Virus record (IMG/VR): IMGVR_UViG_3300033153_009093
Location: 116,375-180,374 of that record
DNA: 64,000 nt
Source: a virus
Strand: one strand, 5' to 3'
Position numbers and translations under genes: made by a program. The notes under the pieces were generated by a model, which saw only the letters and a list, made by a program, of their open reading frames with translations, made no database searches and was not told where the DNA came from. Shown piece by piece: positions 6,146 to 55,965 of this stretch (positions within the stretch are counted from its first letter, which is position 1; the number at the start of each line of letters is the position of its first letter).

Positions 6146-7477
6146 ATGAAAAAGTGTATAAAAAATTATTCTATAAACATATCATCATCTAATTATAATA
6201 AATTAACCAATTATTTATTATACTATAATAAGTGTAAAAATTTATTTTATAATAAATATTAGAATGATATCGGTACAATATATTTACCATATAAATATGA
6301 ACTACGAGATACATTAGTTTCAAATATAAAAAATAATGATTTGAATATTAATGAATTGGATTTATTAAAAAGCGTTCCCGCTAAATTATAGAAAAACGCA
6401 TTAACTGAATCTATAACTAATTTAAAATCTAATTAGTCTAATACAAAAAATAGAATTAGACAAAAAATAAAAAAGAACAAAAATTTTTCTGAAAAAGATA
6501 CTCATTATTTATATTATGTACTTAAATCAAATAACATATTACATAATATAAATAATGGAGATTTGAATATAACCTTAGAAAAATTTGATGTAAATTATAA
6601 AAAACTTAATTCATATTTATATCGACAAATAAAAAAAGAAAAAAGAAAACCTTATTCTAAAAGTAATAGTTATATTATAGATAGTAGCTCGCAAATATTA
6701 TACAAACAAATAGATAATAATTTAATTTGTTTCCTATCAACATTAAAAAAACGAGAAAGGATTTTAATCCGTTTATCAAATAGTATAAAATATAAAGGCG
6801 ATATTCGTATAGTATTAAAAAATAATAAAATGGAACTACATAAAGTTATTAATATTAAACCTCAATTAAATAACAACAATTCTATTACTGGAATTTATAT
6901 TGATTTTAATAATTTATTCACAACCCAAAATAATATTTATGGTAAAAATTTCGATAAACTATTAAAAAAATTTGCACATATTATTCACTGTAAATCAAAT
7001 AAAAGGGAAATCCTTAAATCAATGAATAATATACTAATACAAAAAAATAACTTAGGTACAAAAAAATAGCACAGTAAAAAAAGAAAATTTATTAATGAAT
7101 TAAATTCCTTTATAAATTTGAATTTGAATTTATTAATTAAAGAAGAGCGGCCTAAAACTATTATTATAAAAAAAATAAATAAATATTTATTATATAATAA
7201 TAGAGATAATTTATTTAATATTCCAAACCATCATTTATAGATCTTAAATAATTATATAATAAATTACATTTATAAACGATTAGAATACAAAACACAATTA
7301 AATCAAATTAATATAATATTAGATAGTTCAAATTATACAATCAAAGTATGTAATAATTGTAAAAGTAGAAATACTATTATTACAAAAGGGTACTTTAAAT
7401 GTAATAATTGCATGGTTAGTATAACTAAAACATCTAATACAATAAACAATATGATTGAGCATCACGGTGTTAATTAA
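6146..7477 (+). CDS. tnpB: TnpB (IS200/IS605 OrfB)-like protein with degenerate RuvC, 443 aa; 5 in-frame TAG
   Basis: Open from ATG 6146 to TAA 7477 except TAG at 6260, 6389, 6434, 7067, 7238. N-terminal HTH-like region, RuvC-I-like GIYIDFNNL, KRLEYK, NYTIKVCNNC..FKCNNC zinc finger, terminal N..NNM. Confidence 0.75.
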
Positions 7478-7587: not shown

Positions 7588-7618
7588 ACCGGAGAAGATT
7601 TTCTTCTCCGGTTTTTTT
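7588..7618 (+). terminator. Intrinsic terminator between convergent tnpB-like and DUF5662-like genes
   Basis: 11-bp stem ACCGGAGAAGA/TCTTCTCCGGT plus T-tract. Confidence 0.85.
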
Positions 7619-8069
7619 ATAGATACTTTTCAATTTTTTTATTAGTACTTTCATGTAAAATCATATCACTTTTATTTTTATTAAAATATGATTTTGGTGT
7701 GCCTTCAAATTTTCTCGACATTCCCCTCTAATCGGCAATCATTTGAAGTATGTATTTTTTTGGCATTTCAATAGGAATTATTTCATTTTTCCTTGTTACA
7801 GATACCTAGTAATTCTAATGATGTTTATTTCTTTTTTGATGTTTATTCTACCCTTGTTGAAATAATTTATCGTTTCCATCAGATTTACAATAATTATTTA
7901 AGCTATCTTTCTTTTCAAAAAAGATAGCAGATGGTATAAATTCGGATGGTAAAAATTTTGATAAGTCATGAGTAATTGCATGATAATATAGTCCCATGTT
8001 GATACATTCTATTCCTACATTCTTTTTATGCTCAATAATATATTTAAAATATTTCTAATATTTATTCAT
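7617..8069 (-). CDS. DUF5662-like (HD-related) protein, 150 aa; 5 in-frame TAG
   Basis: MNKY*KYFKYIIEHK..HDLSKFLPSEF..G*NKHQKRNKHH*NY*V..MPKKY..MIAD*RGM. TAG at 8055, 7848, 7815, 7806, 7728. Missing from the ORF track. Confidence 0.85.
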
Positions 8070-14252: not shown

Positions 14253-16389
14253 TTTCTTTTTTCGCCTCATTATAGATATTAATATAATCAACAAAATTAT
14301 ATATTTCATCATCGCTATTAGTATAATACTTTATATAATCTAATAAAGGATATTTTATGAAAAATATATCAATTCCTTTACTAAACTTTTTTATTTTTCT
14401 TTTTATAAAATTTTGTTTGATCTCTACTTCGTTTATTTTTTTTCTACTAATTCGTCTAAATAATCTAAAAAAATTATACATATGAGCGTTATAATCTAAA
14501 ATATTTTTATCATTTATTTTAAGATAATAAGAATCATAATCTAAAATAAATTTTTTAAATTTATTATCTTCTATCAATTCAAAATATTCTTTTAGATTAT
14601 ATATTTTTTTCAATCTATTAACATAATCGATATCATTAGACCTACATCCTACATTATTATTACAATAATAATAAAAATTTATTTGATTAATATTATCAAT
14701 CAAATGCTGTTGAAATAAATTAGTTAAATCTTCTAATGAAAGTATCTCTTTTCCATCTAAAATTTCCGGTTGATATTTATTATACTTTAAAATAATTATA
14801 GTATCTTCTGTTAAATAGTTATATATATTTGTTAATTCTACATAATTACCTATATCATCTTTCCTGCCTTTATATAAAATATAATGAGTGTAATTATTTT
14901 GTAAATCTATTTGATTACAATACTTTAATTCTACCTTTTTAGAATAGCTTTGATACTCATAATAATAGTTACTACGATTTGATACCGTTGTAGTTTTCGC
15001 AAACATGTCAGAGTAACTATAAACATTTTCTAAAGTACTCAGGGATTTAAATAATTGTAATATTTCTTTAGTTTTTCTACGTTTTGTATCTATTGATGCC
15101 GTAATAATAGTAACATTTTCTATATTATTACTATTGCAAAATTGTTTTATCTTTGATTTATTTATTATTTTGGTAAATTTATCATTAATGATTATAACAT
15201 CTACCATCAGTGGTTTAGATATATACATGCTATTGGAATAATTAATAGCATTCAAACGATTATGTATTCTATTAATTTTATATTGCGTTAAAATATATCC
15301 ATAATCTCTTAAATCGATATAAAAATTAGTATTAGAATAGTAAATAGAAAAGAAATTATTTGAAATTTGGAATTTAGTTAAAAAATAAAAAAGTTCTAAA
15401 TCTTTTTCTTTAATTATATTATATAAATCTTTAATATATTCTACATCTGAAATGTCAATACTTTTTGAAATTTTTTTACATATAATATCTATTTTGGAAT
15501 TTAAAACATCATGCGTATTATTATCATTAAATATAGCTTCTCTATTAATAACTGGAAATAATTCCCCGGTATTAAAAAATAAATATACCGCCATTCTATA
15601 TTTTGTATTTATTTTATTATGAGGTATATAGTTATTAACACTATCATATATTATACCATCTATAACTATAATAACATCATTATTATCTTCTTTTAAATAA
15701 CCCTCATATCTTGAAGTATCTACAATAGCGGCAGACTTATTTTGAATATACTTAATTGTATAATCTTCAAATGAAAATGTATTATTATTATCAATAATAT
15801 TAGGTCTTACTTTCCAAAAGAAAGAAGTTCTAAAAACACATTTAGCAGCTTTTGATAAATCTTTAGAATTGATATTAACTTTTATTATAGTACCATTACA
15901 TTTATCAACTTCTTTCTTTGATAACAAATCCAATTTACCTATATTATTATCAAGATATGCAATATATTTATATTCTATTTTATTATATACAGTCGTTATA
16001 TTAAAAGAATCGGTATAACTCCATGCAGTTTTAGCACCTATACCAAATCCTCCGGTTTCATTATTATTAGTTGATTTAGTGCTATTGCCAAGTTTAACAA
16101 ATACTTTAGCAATTCTGTCAGAAGAAAGACCTATGCCATAATCTATAAACCGAATATATGGATCAATAGGTGTAGGTAATATGACATCTATAGGAATTTC
16201 CGATTTTAATGCTTCTCTATGGGAATCCCTTGCATTGCTCATATACTCTTGTATTAGTATTTTTAATGGGTTCTTATAAAGTTTAGTGGAAAGTATATCA
16301 AATATAATTGCTTCATTTTCAATACCAAATTTCATAGTATCAACACAATCGGATTTTTTTACTTTGAACGAATCGTAATCAATCTTCAT
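14245..16389 (-). CDS. rIIA: rIIA-like protein (N-terminal HATPase)
   Basis: LYKNPL..IQEYMSNARDSH, DYGIGLS, STK..N.TGGFGIGAK; adjacent to rIIB. Confidence 0.9.
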   Translation of the reverse strand: MKIDYDSFKVKKSDCVDTMKFGIENEAIIFDILSTKLYKNPLKILIQEYMSNARDSHREALKSEIPIDVILPTPIDPYIRFIDYGIGLSSDRIAKVFVKLGNSTKSTNNNETGGFGIGAKTAWSYTDSFNITTVYNKIEYKYIAYLDNNIGKLDLLSKKEVDKCNGTIIKVNINSKDLSKAAKCVFRTSFFWKVRPNIIDNNNTFSFEDYTIKYIQNKSAAIVDTSRYEGYLKEDNNDVIIVIDGIIYDSVNNYIPHNKINTKYRMAVYLFFNTGELFPVINREAIFNDNNTHDVLNSKIDIICKKISKSIDISDVEYIKDLYNIIKEKDLELFYFLTKFQISNNFFSIYYSNTNFYIDLRDYGYILTQYKINRIHNRLNAINYSNSMYISKPLMVDVIIINDKFTKIINKSKIKQFCNSNNIENVTIITASIDTKRRKTKEILQLFKSLSTLENVYSYSDMFAKTTTVSNRSNYYYEYQSYSKKVELKYCNQIDLQNNYTHYILYKGRKDDIGNYVELTNIYNYLTEDTIIILKYNKYQPEILDGKEILSLEDLTNLFQQHLIDNINQINFYYYCNNNVGCRSNDIDYVNRLKKIYNLKEYFELIEDNKFKKFILDYDSYYLKINDKNILDYNAHMYNFFRLFRRISRKKINEVEIKQNFIKRKIKKFSKGIDIFFIKYPLLDYIKYYTNSDDEIYNFVDYINIYNEAKKENV

Positions 16390-16439
16390 AATTTTTTATT
16401 ATTAGTTTAATTTTATTTAAAAAAGTATAAGTTATATAA

Positions 16440-16468
16440 ATTATAACACATTATGAAGATAAAATCAA
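16440..16468 (-). promoter_or_regulatory. Sigma70-type promoter upstream of rIIA
   Basis: TTGATT-N17-TATAAT with extended TG. Confidence 0.7.
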
Positions 16469-16476
16469 CACAAATA

Positions 16477-17712
16477 TTATGTCAATGTTTCAAGAATATA
16501 ATTTTTAAAATTATCAACAATTTGTTTTTTAACTGTAATATTCCATTCATTACAACAGCACGGAGCATAATCTTTATATCTCATATCATAGTCTTCAGAT
16601 TCATGTAACGATTTTTGAAAATCGCAAATATCGTCCGCCTTCTTTACATGAATAAAACAAGGAGAAGTTGGACAATCGGATTTTATGTTTAAAGATTTTG
16701 TATATTTATAATATTTAGTTCTGCATTCATATGGAAATGGGCCGTATAACCCAATAGCAGGCTTTTCAATACCTTCACGAAAATGAAATAGTGCAGTATC
16801 AACACTAATACAAAGAGTAGCATCATATGCATCAAGAAAAAATTCATCAAGATTTTTAGCTGCTATAATTTTAATTCTGTCATCTTTTAAATTATTAATA
16901 TAATTTATATCTTCGATTCTTAAATTCAATTCATGGATATATATATTTACATCCTTATTATTAATACATTCAATTACGGATTCATAAATATCCTGAAATC
17001 TCATAGACCTAATTATAGCAGTAGATCTAGGATTAATTAAAATACTAGGTTTATCAGAATCTATATTAGATTTATTATTATTTATTCTTGCTGTTTTTAA
17101 TTGAGGTCTTCCCCATTCAAAGTCAAACTCATCAATCCCGATAGTTTTATATTGTAATTCATACCAATTATCTTTACTATTTTCAATAACACCTTCATAA
17201 TAAATAGTCTTATACCTACTATTTACTCGTTTTTTTTCTAAAGAGTTATTACTTTTATATCTTACAATTGGCGAAAAATAAGATATAAATGTCACTGGTT
17301 CTCGATACCATTTAAACACGCTTCTATATTTTTCTTGAGAAATGAATTTTAAATTTTTAGATTTCTTATTTAAAAATTGTACTATATTCATTGAAATAGA
17401 AGATAAAGCGATTAAATCGCCTATGCCTCCGGTTCTTAATATAATAGGAAATACCATTTTATTTTCTTTTGTAAAATCTAATTTATCTATAACATCGTCA
17501 ATATTTTTTTCATATTTAACAATTTTATTATAAATATTTTTTACTTGAGATGCTATCATATGTCTATCAGAAGTTCTAATAACTTCTATTAACCTTTCTT
17601 TAAATGTTAACCATATAGTATCAGCGAATAAATACATATGTTTAGGTTGTATTTTTATATCATTATCATTAATATTGATAGAAATACTTTTTTTAAATTC
17701 AACAATTTTCAT
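16477..17712 (-). CDS. Glycosyltransferase family 9 (heptosyltransferase-like)
   Basis: RTGGIGDLI and ISVDTALFH..GIEKPAIGLYGP match the GT9 GIGD / I.VDTG..H.A..L..P...L.GP motifs. Confidence 0.8.
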   Translation of the reverse strand: MKIVEFKKSISININDNDIKIQPKHMYLFADTIWLTFKERLIEVIRTSDRHMIASQVKNIYNKIVKYEKNIDDVIDKLDFTKENKMVFPIILRTGGIGDLIALSSISMNIVQFLNKKSKNLKFISQEKYRSVFKWYREPVTFISYFSPIVRYKSNNSLEKKRVNSRYKTIYYEGVIENSKDNWYELQYKTIGIDEFDFEWGRPQLKTARINNNKSNIDSDKPSILINPRSTAIIRSMRFQDIYESVIECINNKDVNIYIHELNLRIEDINYINNLKDDRIKIIAAKNLDEFFLDAYDATLCISVDTALFHFREGIEKPAIGLYGPFPYECRTKYYKYTKSLNIKSDCPTSPCFIHVKKADDICDFQKSLHESEDYDMRYKDYAPCCCNEWNITVKKQIVDNFKNYILETLT

Positions 17713-18649
17713 TAATATTACACCTTATATTATTTATTTTTTTTAATAGATAATTATAATTATCTATTATATTTTTTTCATTAACAATATTTAATGATAT
17801 ATTATCATCAAAATTATTAATATATAACTTCATTATTTTTAATAGTTCTGTTATATTAAATTGCTTACAATTATAACAAGCATCTTCTATACAGTTTATA
17901 TCATCAAAATTTATATTGAAGTATTTTATAAAATACTTCAATAAATTATTATACAAATGACATTCAGTACCAGTTTTATATTTAATGATATACTTTTTCA
18001 TATTATCTATATCATCAAAATTAATAAAATTATTTAATGATTTTGACATTTTTTCTTTTTCATTGCTTCCATAAATAACATTATTAGAAATATTAATTTT
18101 TATATTTTTTATATTTAATTTTTTATAAATATCTTTCATAATGTTAATATTTGATTTTTGATCATTTGCTAAAAAAACAGTTGTTATTTCATTATCATTA
18201 TGATATAATAATACATCAAAAGTTTGTAAAACTGGATATAATAAAAATCCCAAAGATTTATTCTTACTATTTTTAAATGTAGGATTTTTTAATAATTTTG
18301 ATGTATTTATTAACGGAAGATATTTATATGTTAAAGAAGTATGATAATTATTAATGTTTTTATTATTTTGAAATATAAATAATAATTTATTAATATTATT
18401 ATCAATGTTTTTATTATTATATATTAAATATGTTTTATATAATGAATAAATCTTTTTTGCTAGTAAAATAGAATTATTATTTATTTTATTAGCTGAAATA
18501 TTAGATAATTCTGAATGAGTTTCAGCTAGTAAAATAAATATTTTATTAACATTTTTAAACATTATATTATCAAACATATTTAAAATTGTCATAACATGTC
18601 CAATATGTAAATTATTTCCCGTTGATCTAATTCCAAAATATATATTCAT
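17699..18649 (-). CDS. trpS: Tryptophanyl-tRNA synthetase (divergent, Thermotoga-type-like)
   Basis: GIRSTG..LHIGH (HIGH), GFLLYPVLQTFDVLLY, NDQK....KDIYKKLN, KMSKS; C-x22-C-x4-C-x2-C near the C-terminus. Confidence 0.8.
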   Translation of the reverse strand: MNIYFGIRSTGNNLHIGHVMTILNMFDNIMFKNVNKIFILLAETHSELSNISANKINNNSILLAKKIYSLYKTYLIYNNKNIDNNINKLLFIFQNNKNINNYHTSLTYKYLPLINTSKLLKNPTFKNSKNKSLGFLLYPVLQTFDVLLYHNDNEITTVFLANDQKSNINIMKDIYKKLNIKNIKINISNNVIYGSNEKEKMSKSLNNFINFDDIDNMKKYIIKYKTGTECHLYNNLLKYFIKYFNINFDDINCIEDACYNCKQFNITELLKIMKLYINNFDDNISLNIVNEKNIIDNYNYLLKKINNIRCNINENC

Positions 18650-18670
18650 AAATTATTCCCTTTTAAAATA

Positions 18671-18718
18671 TATTTATATATATCATATTTTTTTAAAAAA
18701 ATATGATATATATAAATA
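18671..18718. repeat. Perfect 48-bp palindrome in the divergent intergenic region
   Basis: TATTTATATATATCATATTTTTTT followed directly by its reverse complement. Confidence 0.95.
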
Positions 18719-18759
18719 AATATAAGAAATAGAATTAATATTAACCAATAAAAAAATTT

Positions 18760-19116
18760 ATGAATTTCATTAATTATTTTGATAATATATCAGAATTTAA
18801 ATATAAAAAAGATATTATAAAAGAAATCAATATGATATATCATATTGATTTATCAGATAAAGATTATAAAAATAATATTAATAATTTATTAAAGAAGGAA
18901 ATTATTGATAAATCTTCTAAAAAAGGAAAATGTGGCTACATATCTGTTTCATTTTTAAAAAGTAAAAATTTTTCGGATGGAGCATTGTATTTTAATTCAT
19001 TAAAAAACAAAAAACACAATGCTCAGGATTTTAATAAAAAACATGATATAGAAGTTATAATACCTTTTAATAAAAACGATTGTATTATAGAATTAAATTT
19101 AATGGATGAATTATAA
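18760..19116 (+). CDS. Hypothetical protein
   Basis: 118-aa ORF abutting the next gene. Confidence 0.6.
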   Translation: MNFINYFDNISEFKYKKDIIKEINMIYHIDLSDKDYKNNINNLLKKEIIDKSSKKGKCGYISVSFLKSKNFSDGALYFNSLKNKKHNAQDFNKKHDIEVIIPFNKNDCIIELNLMDEL

Positions 19117-20166
19117 ATGTGTAAATTTATTACTAATTTAAATTATAAAAAAAATTTTAATAATAAGAAGTATGATTATATTCTTATTGATATAAACAGT
19201 TTGACTTTAGTGCCTTATCTTAATAGTGAAAAATATTTTTCAAAAGATAACATTAACATTACTCCTTTTATTGAAACTATAAAGTTATATGCTAATTATA
19301 AAAAATATTTTCCGAAAGCAAAATTTATATTTGCTATTGACGGGGGTATATCTCCTACAATTTTAAAAGTTTACCCTGATTATAAAAAAAATAGAAATTC
19401 AAAAAAATATACATCAAAACATTATAATTCAACAATTTGTAAAAATATATATGATTACAATGTAGGATTATTAATAGCTTTATTTGATAAATTGCAAGAG
19501 TTTTTTATTTATGATATTAGAAGAAATGAAGCTGATTTTATTATTGGCTATATAGCCAATAAATTATCAAAAAATAATAAATGTTTGATATTATCTCATG
19601 ATAAAGATTTATTATTTGCATATAATAAAAACAATAATATTGATATAATTTATAAATATATCAATATGAAATATAATAAAGTTTTATATTATTATGTTGA
19701 TTCATTTGAATGTTTATTACATATAATAGATTTCAGATATTTAAAAAATGAAATAGAATTGCTCTATTACCGGTCTTTAGTTGGCGATACAAGTGATAGT
19801 ATTAAAAAACCTTTCGGTTTAAAATCAAAAAAAATTGTTAATAATATGTTTGAAAATTGTTATTTAGAAAATATCAATGTTACTTATGAATATATTATTG
19901 GATATTTTTCAGAAAAATTTAATAATAAAAAAGTATTAGATAATTTTATTGTTGATTTTCGAAGAAATTTATTGATAATGAATATTTTCAATGAAAATAT
20001 TATATTGCAAAATGATAAAATAAAATTGAATGCATATATTGATGATGTAAAATATAAAAACAATGAAAAAATTGAAATTAATTCAATACATAGTTTATTT
20101 TCTAAATATGGATTGTATTTAGAAAAAGATAATATTAATAAAATGTTTAAATATTTAAAAGGTTAA
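19117..20166 (+). CDS. 5'-3' exonuclease / RNase H (FEN1/T4 Rnh-like), paralog 1, TAG-free
   Basis: LIDIN, FAIDG, YKKNR, NEADF, SHDKD, LVGDTSD. Confidence 0.85.
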   Translation: MCKFITNLNYKKNFNNKKYDYILIDINSLTLVPYLNSEKYFSKDNINITPFIETIKLYANYKKYFPKAKFIFAIDGGISPTILKVYPDYKKNRNSKKYTSKHYNSTICKNIYDYNVGLLIALFDKLQEFFIYDIRRNEADFIIGYIANKLSKNNKCLILSHDKDLLFAYNKNNNIDIIYKYINMKYNKVLYYYVDSFECLLHIIDFRYLKNEIELLYYRSLVGDTSDSIKKPFGLKSKKIVNNMFENCYLENINVTYEYIIGYFSEKFNNKKVLDNFIVDFRRNLLIMNIFNENIILQNDKIKLNAYIDDVKYKNNEKIEINSIHSLFSKYGLYLEKDNINKMFKYLKG

Positions 20167-49585: not shown

Positions 49586-50070
49586 ATGAAAGAATATAAA
49601 AAAATAGTTGAATATATTAATACTGATATAAAAGAAATAGTACTTAATGACAATTAGAAAAAAGTTATTAAATATATTGAAAGAAATAATAATAATAATA
49701 TTATTATATTTAAAGATAGACAAGTAGGATTTACTACTTTGACAAATTTATATATATATTGTATAAATTTTTATATGAAAAAGAAAGTAGCGTGATAGCT
49801 TGTCATAGTCAAAGAATGGTAAATTGTTGCAAAGATGACATTATAAAAATTATTAGTAGACAAAAAACTTTACAAGATATTCTGATTACTAATAATAAAA
49901 TTTCATATCATGATCGCAATGATGAAATTACTATAAGATTTATTACTAATTCATATGAGTATAAAAGTTGCAGTATTAATAATTTAATAATAAACGATTC
50001 TGATTATATAGAAAATTTTAGATACACATTTACAACTTATTATACATCTATAATGTACAATAAGTTGTAA
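49586..50070 (+). pseudogene. Short terminase-ATPase-like gene with 1 TAG and a frameshift in an (AT)n tract
   Basis: LNDN*KKVI..IIIFKDRQVGFTTL (Q-motif and RQ.G.TT Walker-A-like); frame shifts at 49749-49760 into track ORF 49759. Confidence 0.5.
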
Positions 50071-50190
50071 AATTATACTATCTATAGATAGTATACATTG
50101 TGAATTTATAAAAGATTTACTAATGAAATACGGAGCTATATTTTTATTAAACACTTCAGTATAATAATAATTAATAAGGAAAAAAATAAT

Positions 50191-50655
50191 ATGAAAGAAA
50201 TAAAATTAAAATTGCATAGCATTGTTGATCTGATTACTAATTCATCTACAGTTTTATATACTGACAGTAGAAAATCCGAAGAAGCTTTGATAAATGTTAT
50301 GGGAGAAATTTTTAAATTACATAATATTGATAAAAAAGTAAAAGACGTATTTGATATTTCAGTAACCGTTGAAGATCTCGATGAACATATTTATAGTTAT
50401 ATTTATGATAATCCTGATGAGTTTGAACTTGAATATGATGATGATCTAGGTTCAAAAGTAAATGATTTGACTATTCAATATATGGAAGATTTTAAATCTG
50501 GTAAGATTAAAATGCCTGATTGGATGGATGGTTTAGGCGAAGATTCTGCAAGTAATTGGATTTCTATTGTATCAAAAGAAAAAGAGTACGAATATTTAGC
50601 AGGATTATTAGAAAAATTAATTTATAGTATTGATGTAGAAGAAGGAATTGAATAA
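50191..50655 (+). CDS. Hypothetical protein (DLITNSST family), paralog B
   Basis: Shares MKEIKLKLHSIVDLITNSSTV and a C-terminal I..KE..YE..A..L..LIYS motif with paralog A. Confidence 0.75.
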   Translation: MKEIKLKLHSIVDLITNSSTVLYTDSRKSEEALINVMGEIFKLHNIDKKVKDVFDISVTVEDLDEHIYSYIYDNPDEFELEYDDDLGSKVNDLTIQYMEDFKSGKIKMPDWMDGLGEDSASNWISIVSKEKEYEYLAGLLEKLIYSIDVEEGIE

Positions 50656-50845
50656 TTGAATATGATAGTTATCTTAAGTTGTCTATATAAGATTTAAGCT
50701 ACTTTTTATAGTTTTATATAGACAACTACCTAAATTATGTCATCGGTTTAAATTAGAGGCTATTCTGTTACGCTATTAAAGAACTATTGTCTATTATTCA
50801 ATTAAGAAATAGGGGCAATTATTAATGTTACCGAGTCCCTATTTT

Positions 50846-51137
50846 TTATATAGCTACAAGCTTTCTGCCGCTATTTTCATCTATAAATATCTTAACAGTT
50901 GGTACATATGTTAATGCTTCTGCAACAGCGTAGGTATTATTAGAATTTTTATGTTGCGTAGTGACTTGCACGATACATCCACCATGTACTTGACATGCTT
51001 TAGTACTTTTCATCTATCCTTCATTTTCACTTGATGCTTTGTATAGTAGTTGAAACATATCACCATTTCCTTATTATTTCAACATCTTTTACATTTTTTC
51101 TTGTACCGTTTACATTGGAATTATTAAGTGTCTTCAT
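50846..51137 (-). pseudogene. Conserved phage hypothetical protein (KASS..EGWMKSTKA family) with one +1 frameshift and 1 TAG
   Basis: MKTLNNSNVNGTRKNVKDVEII/GNGDMFQLLYKASSENEG*MKSTKA..VQVTTQ..VAEALTYVP; extra base near 51071; TAG 51014-51016. Confidence 0.7.
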
Positions 51138-51322
51138 TGTTATATTAACCCATTTGTAATGTTTTAATATTACTTCAGAATTAATGAGTATTTTTCTATA
51201 TCATAAGCAATATAAATTAAGTGGTATAGAAAAAGGTTATAAATTATTACACATCTTTGAGGAAAATTAGATTAAAGATAAATGAAAACAATTAGATAGA
51301 ATTTACTCTTTTTGTTAAACAA

Positions 51323-51349
51323 TAAAAAACCGGGAAATTACTCCCGGTT
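51323..51349 (-). terminator. Intrinsic terminator
   Basis: Minus strand AACCGGGAG-TAAT-TTCCCGGTT plus T-tract. Confidence 0.8.
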
Positions 51350-51355
51350 ATATCA

Positions 51356-51697
51356 TTATTTATTTTCCATTTTATATTTTAAAAAATCAAATAATTCCCC
51401 TGCATCAAGAAGGGAGAACTTTTTATTATTATATTCGACCCATGCATATTCTTTATTAATACCATCTGCCGCTGACGGACTGTCATATAGCCACCAATCG
51501 AGCATTGTATAATTATCTTCTGGTTCATCTTCAAACTCTTTAGATAATGATTCAATAATTCTATCAACAAACTTATGAGTTATATTAAATAATACCGGTT
51601 CCTCAAAACAAACAGATATTGATTTCGATAATTTATTTTCTAATTCTAATTGATTAATAGTTTCATTAATTAAAGTTACGAAAGTTTCCCTTTTCAT
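51356..51697 (-). CDS. Hypothetical protein
   Basis: 113-aa ORF (LDWWLYD motif). Confidence 0.7.
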   Translation of the reverse strand: MKRETFVTLINETINQLELENKLSKSISVCFEEPVLFNITHKFVDRIIESLSKEFEDEPEDNYTMLDWWLYDSPSAADGINKEYAWVEYNNKKFSLLDAGELFDFLKYKMENK

Positions 51698-51702
51698 ATA
51701 AT

Positions 51703-51924
51703 TTACCCTTTAAATTTAGTTAATACTTTTGATAGCAACGTTTGATATTCATTTAAAATATTATTAGTATATTCATTTGTGCAGCATATACCTGTTTCGG
51801 TGTATGCCATATAGTTACTTCCTATGTAACTATATGGACTTGTACAATTTTTATTATATGCAACTATTTTAACAATATCGCCATTATTTGTTAAATACTC
51901 TTTATTATACTTTAAACTAATCAT
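51703..51924 (-). CDS. Hypothetical protein
   Basis: 73-aa ORF. Confidence 0.6.
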   Translation of the reverse strand: MISLKYNKEYLTNNGDIVKIVAYNKNCTSPYSYIGSNYMAYTETGICCTNEYTNNILNEYQTLLSKVLTKFKG

Positions 51925-52345
51925 TTTTTATTTGTAAGGCTTTTAGATTGCTCATATCTTGCTTTAGCCCATCAATACATTGTTGGAAATATTTATCAAG
52001 TTCATTGACATGATTATTTATAAGCTCATTCCATTTTTCAGTGCAATCTTTTTTATTATCAAAAATATATAATTCATTTCCACAATACCCCCTCCAACCA
52101 GTATTATCAACTGGAGACAAGACTTTTTTTGACGGTTGATCATTCTTTTTTAAAACAAGAAAATGAGATGTAGAATAATGTATTGTTTTATTTGATGGTA
52201 ATTTTTCATTAGAAATAATAATACATTTACTAGGTGTTACTTTTCTTAATGGTTTTTTATGAAAGTCCGGTTGATTATAATCACAAATCCACACAATTTT
52301 ATTATCATGTTTACCTTCTCTCATTTCTTTTGTTGATATTTGCAT
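51917..52345 (-). CDS. Hypothetical protein (ends at TAG 51917, or at TAA 51905 on readthrough)
   Basis: 142-aa ORF. Confidence 0.7.
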   Translation of the reverse strand: MQISTKEMREGKHDNKIVWICDYNQPDFHKKPLRKVTPSKCIIISNEKLPSNKTIHYSTSHFLVLKKNDQPSKKVLSPVDNTGWRGYCGNELYIFDNKKDCTEKWNELINNHVNELDKYFQQCIDGLKQDMSNLKALQIKND

Positions 52346-55606: not shown

Positions 55607-55965
55607 TGGTGGAGATGGAGGGAGTCGAACCCTCGTCATGAATATAGTCCCTCTATATAATTATTTACATGCATAGCTCTATTTAATCAGGTTTCATACT
55701 TTAGAGCTAAATAAAGCAAACACTCTATAGGATATATCCCGTTAAATTCATCGTTGATTACAGGTATGTTTCAACAACTATCAGATGAAGTCGATGGAAT
55801 GTTTAAATTATCTGAGTCAAATAATCATTCCAGCAAAGCTGATCAAGCAGCCATTGCAATTGCGTAATCGTCAGCAATTATATTTACAGTAAACCAAATA
55901 ACGCATTGATTAAAAGCGACATGTTATACAAACTTTCTATACCATTCGATACCTTGTTCATCCCC
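55607..55965 (-). ncRNA. ssrA: tmRNA
   Basis: Acceptor stem GGGGATG/CATCTCC-A-CCA with G3-U Ala wobble, T-arm GAGGGTTCGACTCCCTC, tag ORF ADDYAIAMAA-TGA; 359 nt. Confidence 0.95.

Follow-up and report, generated by a model that had tools for sequence, protein, structure and literature searches.

How could a phage come to read the amber codon TAG as tryptophan, and which enzyme would load the transfer RNA (tRNA) that does so? These questions are raised by a divergent gene for a tryptophanyl-tRNA synthetase (TrpRS) in the IMG/VR virus record IMGVR_UViG_3300033153_009093. The stretch analyzed here (the window; positions 116,375 to 180,374, 64,000 nucleotides) is the last 64 kb of this single record of 180,374 bp; an earlier note, made from its letters alone, had proposed the gene product as the charging enzyme of an amber-reading tRNA(CUA). 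With a GC content of 24%, the genome carries inverted terminal repeats, and its completeness is estimated at 100%. An endosymbiont origin, prompted by the low GC content, was considered and rejected, because these repeats and the phage genes mark the record as a complete virus genome: The TrpRS is carried by a complete phage of an AT-rich jumbo-phage family. As set out below, sequence comparison makes it probable that the phage tRNA(CUA) is charged by a dedicated TrpRS, expressed early, and that TAG thereby becomes a codon for tryptophan.

Open reading frames (ORFs) of at least 100 amino acids (aa) give a coding cover of 0.735, which rises to 0.905 when TAG is read as sense, with ORFs of up to ~2,200 aa. 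Reading TGA as sense merely raises the cover from 0.735 to 0.763, and TGA recoding was rejected for this little gain. The in-frame TAG codons, ~290 in number, lie in late genes; the genes for the TrpRS and for the tRNA(CUA) both lie in TAG-free regions, and the early genes still use TGG. One gene of the window served as the test case for the meaning of TAG:

7617..8069, minus strand: DUF5662 gene with five in-frame TAG codons (PF18907, E value 1.8e-26)

Its five TAG codons fall on the five Trp-dominated columns of the family, in which W is found in 91, 117, 120, 120, and 119 of 120 homologues. TerL has nine TAG and no TGG codons: Two TAG codons are found on invariant W of four T4-like TerL proteins, two further ones on W of the best homologue, and one on an invariant F, with none on Q. 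Across the genome, ORFs with in-frame TAG are nearly devoid of TGG, and the reverse is also true. TGG accounts for 0.17% of the codons in TAG-bearing ORFs versus 0.76% in TAG-free ORFs; this depletion is 4.5-fold, and in relative terms no other amino acid is depleted as strongly; Gln and Tyr are not depleted. Together with the finding of only one to three Gln partners per genome, the undepleted Gln led us to reject TAG as a codon for glutamine.

The TrpRS is a member of a clade of 20 proteins, a small homologue family at 39–68% identity, encoded on contigs of 166, 276, 134, and 160/232 kb as well as on smaller ones. A common gene order was observed (FEN-like nuclease, small ORF, TrpRS, glycosyltransferase family 9 [GT9], rIIA-like, rIIB, dUTPase, deoxynucleoside monophosphate kinase, and RNR), and every context of the TrpRS clade longer than ~2 kb represents the same syntenic phage family. 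At the TrpRS loci of the relatives, cover increases from 0.73–0.84 to 0.91–0.96 when TAG is sense. The earlier note had asked whether relatives with the gene show TAG at tryptophan columns; they do, with TAG and TGG interchanging within the same alignment columns (e.g., TAG in three genomes and TGG in the remaining one, or vice versa). Throughout, TAG is most often aligned with TAG, and the order of the other partners, W>Y>F, matches the spectrum of TGG-encoded Trp. The position of a TAG in the ClpP of one relative is uninformative, being on a variable column. A likelihood calculation over the cross-genome orthologue alignments ranked W highest, with a lead of 55 log units over Y; taken singly, contigs A, B, and D also gave W as the best reading. 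The assignment of TAG to tryptophan in this phage genome, already supposed in the earlier note, is well supported by coding cover, DUF5662, TerL, the depletion of TGG, and the likelihood.

TAG codons were also seen in a TnpB/Cas12f-like ORF on the plus strand of the window (6146-7477; TNB domain, E value 5.6e-5), which has five in frame; the TnpB/Cas12f-like ORF of a relative (L009 18271-19599) has four. Because of its five in-frame TAG codons, this mobile-element nuclease gene appears to have adopted the late code of the phage.

The synthetase gene and its signatures are found at the following positions of the window:

17699..18649, minus strand: TrpRS gene, 316 aa, with an ATG start and a TGA stop; PF00579 match
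18596..18610, minus strand: HIGH signature (LHIGH, residues 14-18), with H15, G17, and H18 invariant in 15 homologues
18215..18217, minus strand: D145, aligned to Asp136 of Thermotoga maritima TrpRS (chain residue 148 of 2G36) and invariant in the clade
18038..18052, minus strand: KMSKS signature (residues 200-204), common to canonical TrpRS, with K200, S202, K203, and S204 invariant and M201 nearly so
17867..17962, minus strand: four-Cys motif C230-x22-C253-x4-C258-x2-C261 in the C-terminal tRNA-anticodon-binding domain, a putative [4Fe-4S] site

Neither TGG nor TAG occurs in the gene, and TGA is found only as its stop. The earlier note had described the protein as free of Trp and the gene as free of TAG, and this holds for the relatives checked at the DNA level as well: In seven of seven genes (our own and those of six relatives) there is neither TAG nor TGG. 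Trp-free proteins make up 18 of the 20 clade enzymes, compared with 22% of other TrpRS representatives. As neither codon occurs in the gene, a host using the standard code can translate it.

Is this protein a TrpRS or a tyrosyl-tRNA synthetase (TyrRS)? The Pfam family PF00579 (tRNA-synt_1b, class I W/Y) matches the ORF with an E value of 2e-23 and 83.6 bits against a cut-off of 21.1, which places the set of motifs far beyond chance. A profile built from 15 family members found T. maritima TrpRS (2G36) as the best solved structure (3.5e-24, 88.8 bits, residues 1–305), followed by 12 further TrpRS, with the first TyrRS scoring only 28 bits. The AlphaFold2 model of the phage TrpRS is full-length (pLDDT 86, pTM 0.88), and the 41 top-ranked Foldseek matches listed for it (ranks to 50) are all TrpRS, again with 2G36 first; identity to T. 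maritima TrpRS, the best match in both sequence and fold, is ~19%. When 1.84 billion representatives were searched exhaustively with the profile, only eight clade representatives fell below 1e-30, followed by a gap to ~1e-29; the ten best nonclade matches all score best as TrpRS by NCBIfam, seven of them above the trpS cut-off. A quick maximum-likelihood tree united the 20 phage proteins in one clade (SH-aLRT 100; branch length 1.39) among other four-Cys TrpRS-like proteins, with TyrRS forming a separate clade at a support of 100. No relatives of the TrpRS were found in IMG/VR viral contigs, and tblastn against 50,697 GenBank phages gave no match. By profile, fold, and tree, the phage ORF is a real but very divergent TrpRS, nearest to the Fe-S enzyme of T. 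maritima and apart from TyrRS.

The motif list of the earlier note (LHIGH, GFLLYPVLQTFD, DQK..KDI..LN, and KMSKS) is present as written: GFLLYPVLQTFD corresponds to residues 134–145 and DQK..KDI..LN to residues 163–179. HIGH, KMSKS, D145, D163-Q164, and the four-Cys columns are invariant in the 15 homologues, and H15 and G17 of HIGH are common to canonical TrpRS too. In all, 21 residues conserved in canonical TrpRS are kept, including G6, T10, H15, G17, H45, Y138-P139-L141-D145, D163-Q164, KMSKS, and K262. A bacterial-type Trp pocket is present, with the Asp136 equivalent (YPVLQ..D) and GxDQ; of its residues, Y138, P139, L141, D145, D163, and Q164 also occur in canonical TrpRS. In T. maritima, Asp136 binds the indole N1 of Trp (PMC2954223). 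As judged from these alignments, the catalytic core and the residues of the Trp pocket are intact; the assignment to TrpRS rather than TyrRS, which had been proposed before, stands on profile, fold, tree, and the NCBIfam scores of the neighbours.

None of the 20 clade members deviates at the four Cys, which the profile alignment pairs with the four ligands of the cluster in 2G36, namely Cys236, Cys259, Cys266, and Cys269 of T. maritima TrpRS (PMC2954223). The motif of the latter was given in the earlier note as roughly C-x22-C-x6-C-x2-C, correctly so (PMC2954223), and the C-x22-C-x4-C-x2-C described there is indeed carried by the phage enzyme. With the Thermotoga-type motif taken as C-x(21-24)-C-x6-C-x2-C in the anticodon-binding domain, the x4 spacing is seen only in the six closest clade members (P0122-P0127); of the other 14, 13 have x6 as in T. 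maritima and one has x5. A segment of ~9 residues with the equivalent of Arg224 is deleted in P0122-P0127 and retained by the nine remaining sequences of the 15-member alignment. In T. maritima, Arg224 contacts the cluster, and an R-FeS motif has been proposed to read C34; a published model and a theoretical study put the cluster beside C34 of the tRNA (PMC2954223, PMC4027196). It had been suggested that the change in Cys spacing retunes the enzyme for CUA. This finds no support: The x4 spacing is confined to one subclade, relatives with x6 are equally TAG-recoded among the contigs read, and the base that the cluster contacts in the published model, C34, does not differ between CCA and CUA. 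The phage enzyme is predicted to be an active homodimer-type class Ic Fe-S (Thermotoga-like) TrpRS that has diverged far within one jumbo-phage family.

The proposed partner of the enzyme, a phage tRNA(CUA), had likewise been named in the earlier note and is in fact the only tRNA of the genome. It is 74 nt long and lies 7.6 kb ahead of the window (genome c[108714-108787]); its score with the Rfam tRNA model is 59.4 bits, and it has the anticodon loop CU-CUA-AA, a variable loop of 4 nt, C1-G72, U73, and an encoded CCA end, and is located between an HNH endonuclease gene and a TAG-free helicase block. It has neither the CCA anticodon nor the G73 that E. coli TrpRS uses. The acceptor end of tRNA-Gln is U1-A72/G73, and this is also missing from the phage tRNA. 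A blastn search of the tRNA against E. coli genomes gave no match. The adjoining endonuclease gene is of the NUMOD4/HNH homing type (genome C1 108840-109379, L006 8840-9379, minus strand). The closest relative also has a NUMOD4/HNH gene beside its tRNA(CUA), though the two tRNAs differ in type; the homing-endonuclease gene could be a route for swapping the tRNA.

The tRNA(CUA) and the TrpRS are encoded on one contig in three genomes (our own, L007 with L179, and L008 with L180), and we infer the same for two more. Six relatives have one tRNA(CUA) each, near the helicase; no helicase relatives were found in metagenome contigs. Two of these six tRNAs have a short arm, as in the phage studied here, and the other four are 91–92 nt in length with a long variable arm:

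L179 12139-12229: long-arm tRNA(CUA)
L184 11604-11694: long-arm tRNA(CUA)
L180 15507-15597: long-arm tRNA(CUA)
L181 14464-14555: long-arm tRNA(CUA)

The stems of the long arms are 4 bp and covary (AAGA/UCUU, GGGU/ACCC, AGGU/ACCU), and the loop is kept as UUAAU or UUAAC. As this loop does not read CCA, a design in which the arm is a second anticodon arm was rejected. A long variable arm is a class II architecture and, to our knowledge, has not been described for tRNA-Trp. The bodies of the clade tRNAs are only 52–81% alike, yet the acceptor end is conserved on them: C1-G72 is found in seven of seven, and U or C at position 73 in six of seven. For comparison, pattern scans of viral and metagenome contigs yielded ~170 unrelated tRNA(CUA) with no relative among them; in 107 unrelated phage tRNA(CUA), C1-G72 occurs in eight and a pyrimidine at 73 in one. 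This conservation on otherwise exchangeable bodies suggests a shared synthetase, with the reservation that the tRNAs of the clade are not fully independent. Three relatives furthermore encode a release factor 2 (RF2) beside the tRNA(CUA), with SPF and GGQ motifs and no frameshift, in genes free of TAG:

L180 14000-15097: RF2-type release factor
L181 12741-13838: RF2-type release factor
L185 14458-15546: RF2-type release factor

How these components might act together can be outlined as follows. Lacking both TAG and Trp codons, the TrpRS gene would be translated by the host with the standard code; its product would then load Trp onto its proposed substrate, the phage tRNA(CUA) with C1-G72 and U73, and the charged tRNA would read the ~290 in-frame TAG codons as Trp, making the late genes readable. 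In some relatives, RF2 would help by terminating at UAA and UGA and sparing UAG. This outline supposes that the phage enzyme and not that of the host charges the tRNA(CUA), that the C1-G72/pyrimidine-73 acceptor end serves as the identity mark of the phage TrpRS, that the TrpRS is expressed early, and that it is orthogonal towards the host. The co-occurrence of TrpRS, tRNA(CUA), and TAG recoding across the syntenic relatives supports a dedicated synthetase. Of the outcomes that the earlier note had listed as refuting its proposal, none was encountered. Such an enzyme also seems to be needed because E. coli tRNA-Trp with a CUA anticodon loses recognition by TrpRS and is charged by glutaminyl-tRNA synthetase (GlnRS) instead (PMC2965240).

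Several observations speak against a dedicated synthetase, and some of them lend themselves to other explanations. The genes for the tRNA(CUA) (108.7 kb) and the TrpRS (134–135 kb) are 25 kb apart and do not share an operon, no release factor is encoded in this complete genome (no RF-1-domain match), and the isotype of the tRNA body was not settled by similarity to 284 phage tRNAs. The segment with the Arg224 equivalent, which lies beside the cluster site, is missing from the phage's own subclade. It is conceivable, though unlikely, that the TrpRS is an auxiliary enzyme charging the host tRNA-Trp(CCA), either to keep up the supply of Trp-tRNA or in place of an inhibited host enzyme, and that a host synthetase charges the tRNA(CUA). 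Phages and giant viruses do carry synthetases without any recoding, and the gene is not adjacent to that of the tRNA in a genome with early genes that still need TGG to be read. Host enzymes also often charge phage suppressor tRNAs, as suggested by Borges et al. (10.1101/2021.08.26.457843). However, the clade is found only in the family that reads TAG as Trp, and the avoidance of every Trp codon in nearly all of its enzymes best fits a bootstrap component of a code switch; moreover, bacterial TrpRS depends on the CCA anticodon and G73 (PMC2965240), and the phage tRNA offers neither.

The amino acid and the role of the enzyme itself might also differ from what we propose. TrpRS is paralogous to TyrRS, and nominally the phage protein matches tyrS best in NCBIfam (40 bits against a cut-off of 113.8); Tyr is the second commonest partner of TAG across genomes and scored above Trp for contig C, which has only 27 informative sites, and the long-arm tRNA(CUA) of four relatives could point to another synthetase. 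A reading in which Tyr or another aromatic residue is loaded by the phage enzyme, or by a host enzyme in the case of the long-arm tRNAs, and in which TAG would not stand strictly for Trp throughout the clade, is nevertheless quite improbable, given that profile, fold, and tree identify a TrpRS with D145 and a bacterial Trp pocket conserved, that TAG in DUF5662 and TerL of the phage's own genome falls on invariant W and not Y, and that only W is depleted. In addition, W>Y>F is the normal substitution spectrum of Trp, and the long-arm tRNAs lack A73 and G1-C72. By NCBIfam, the phage enzyme is a divergent member and not a standard trpS equivalog: The TrpRS model PRK12283 gives 32 bits, below its equivalog cut-off of 572, and TIGR00233 does not match. 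Together with the long branch of the clade and 23 other canonical TrpRS-conserved residues that are changed, this might be taken to indicate a TrpRS-derived paralogue with a nontranslational role, for example, in regulation or small-molecule synthesis. We regard this as highly improbable: HIGH, KMSKS, GxDQ, the Trp-binding Asp, the whole anticodon-binding domain, and the four Cys are strictly conserved, and the model is full-length and TrpRS-like.

Within the favored reading of a dedicated synthetase for the tRNA(CUA), a more far-reaching version can be put forward tentatively: The phage family may possess a natural, self-contained orthogonal pair, in which a Trp-free Fe-S TrpRS recognizes CUA together with C1-G72/pyrimidine-73 and tolerates bodies with short as well as long arms. 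If so, this pair would give a whole jumbo-phage family a UAG = Trp code, unreported for any virus or bacterium, and the need for an Fe-S cluster could tie the switch to the late code to the iron and redox state of the host.

The surroundings of the TrpRS gene, which sits in a TAG-free block of genes for nucleotide metabolism and replication, include the following:

16477..17712, minus strand: GT9 gene downstream of the TrpRS gene (Pfam match)
18657..18662, minus strand: Shine-Dalgarno-like AAGGGA, 7 nt before the ATG of the TrpRS gene, read from the sequence
18671..18718, no strand: perfect palindrome of 48 nt upstream of the TrpRS gene, within the 110 nt that separate it from its divergent neighbour

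The GT9 gene overlaps the stop of the TrpRS gene by 14 nt; because of this overlap, the two are probably cotranscribed. In the closest relative (L007 9929-9980), base changes that compensate each other preserve a palindrome of this form, and more distant relatives have other palindromes in the spacer upstream of the TrpRS; the palindrome may be a candidate regulatory site, either an operator or a bidirectional control site. A scan for sigma-70 promoters gave a result no better than shuffles in this AT-rich DNA. The cumulative GC skew turns twice, with a minimum at ~18 kb (window ~16000-20000) and a maximum at ~51 kb (~50000-52000), both matching switches of the coding strand; the TrpRS is located at the first of these turning points, within a divergent gene pair. 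A full-length transfer-messenger RNA gene was found on the minus strand of the window at 55607-55965 (Rfam RF00023, 100.7 bits), with the tag peptide ADDYAIAMAA. Ten large late ORFs outside this region (genome C1 47-104 kb, L003-L006; 423–1253 aa with 5–20 TAG codons each) had no Pfam or PHROGs match at an E value of 0.01, so that the virion module of the phage family is essentially unannotated.

Stop-codon reassignments in phages have so far followed a simple pattern. Borges et al. saw only TAG→Gln and TGA→Trp, which they explain by natural mischarging by host GlnRS and TrpRS (10.1101/2021.08.26.457843), and later phage papers likewise give TAG→Gln; we found no report of TAG→Trp in a phage in the literature searched. 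A phage family with TAG = Trp breaks this rule, and a dedicated synthetase would show how this can happen: The phage brings its own enzyme. This raises the question of how a CCA-dependent synthetase is re-aimed at CUA and which features of the tRNA (C1-G72, the pyrimidine at 73, or the extra arm) carry its identity. It should also be noted that genomes of this family are misannotated under tables 11 and 15.

Like the [4Fe-4S] TrpRS of T. maritima (2G36), the phage enzyme has four Cys on the cluster ligands and keeps Asp136; unlike it, the enzyme is phage-encoded and has no Trp residue, x4 in place of x6, and a deleted Arg224 segment, and its cluster is putative. In the Balanophoraceae plastid code (NCBI table 32), TAG is likewise Trp, in an extremely AT-rich genome. 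The reassignment and the AT-rich setting are the same as in the phage, whereas the plastid code is that of an organelle and genome-wide; the virus mixes TGG in early genes with TAG in late ones and has its own synthetase. The tRNA-Trp(CUA) su+7 of E. coli resembles the phage system in that a CUA anticodon reads UAG in a tRNA-Trp setting. The phage tRNA lacks the GlnRS-type acceptor end U1-A72/G73 and comes with its own TrpRS, whereas su+7 is charged by GlnRS (PMC2965240).

Among phages, the TAG→Gln ("code 15") genomes of the crAss-like, Lak, and phAss-1 phages (PMC9523058, PMC10607447) share with ours the concentration of TAG in late or structural genes, a phage tRNA(CUA), and, in some, RF2. 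Their TAG codons fall on Gln columns, and no dedicated synthetase has been found for them, in contrast to the Trp columns, undepleted Gln, and TrpRS found here. The closest parallel in design is found in the TGA-recoded Jade phages with their code-change module of TrpRS, tRNA(UCA), and release factor 1 (RF1) (10.1101/2021.08.26.457843). Both systems comprise a TrpRS of the phage's own, a suppressor tRNA and (here in relatives) a sparing release factor; both start from the standard code and reassign a stop codon to Trp in the late genes. They differ in the codon (TAG, not TGA), in the release factor (RF2, not RF1), and in arrangement, as the parts are dispersed over 25 kb here and form one operon there. 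The synthetase described here furthermore represents a separate Fe-S-type, Trp-free lineage. The tRNAs carry C1-G72 with a pyrimidine at 73, and some of those in relatives also have a long arm. The AP1 and HF2 TrpRS:tRNA-Trp(UCA) pairs have been validated, with Trp inserted at UGA (PMC12636597); beside the UGA-reading AP1 pair, a natural UAG-reading TrpRS/tRNA pair would be a candidate tool for genetic-code expansion.

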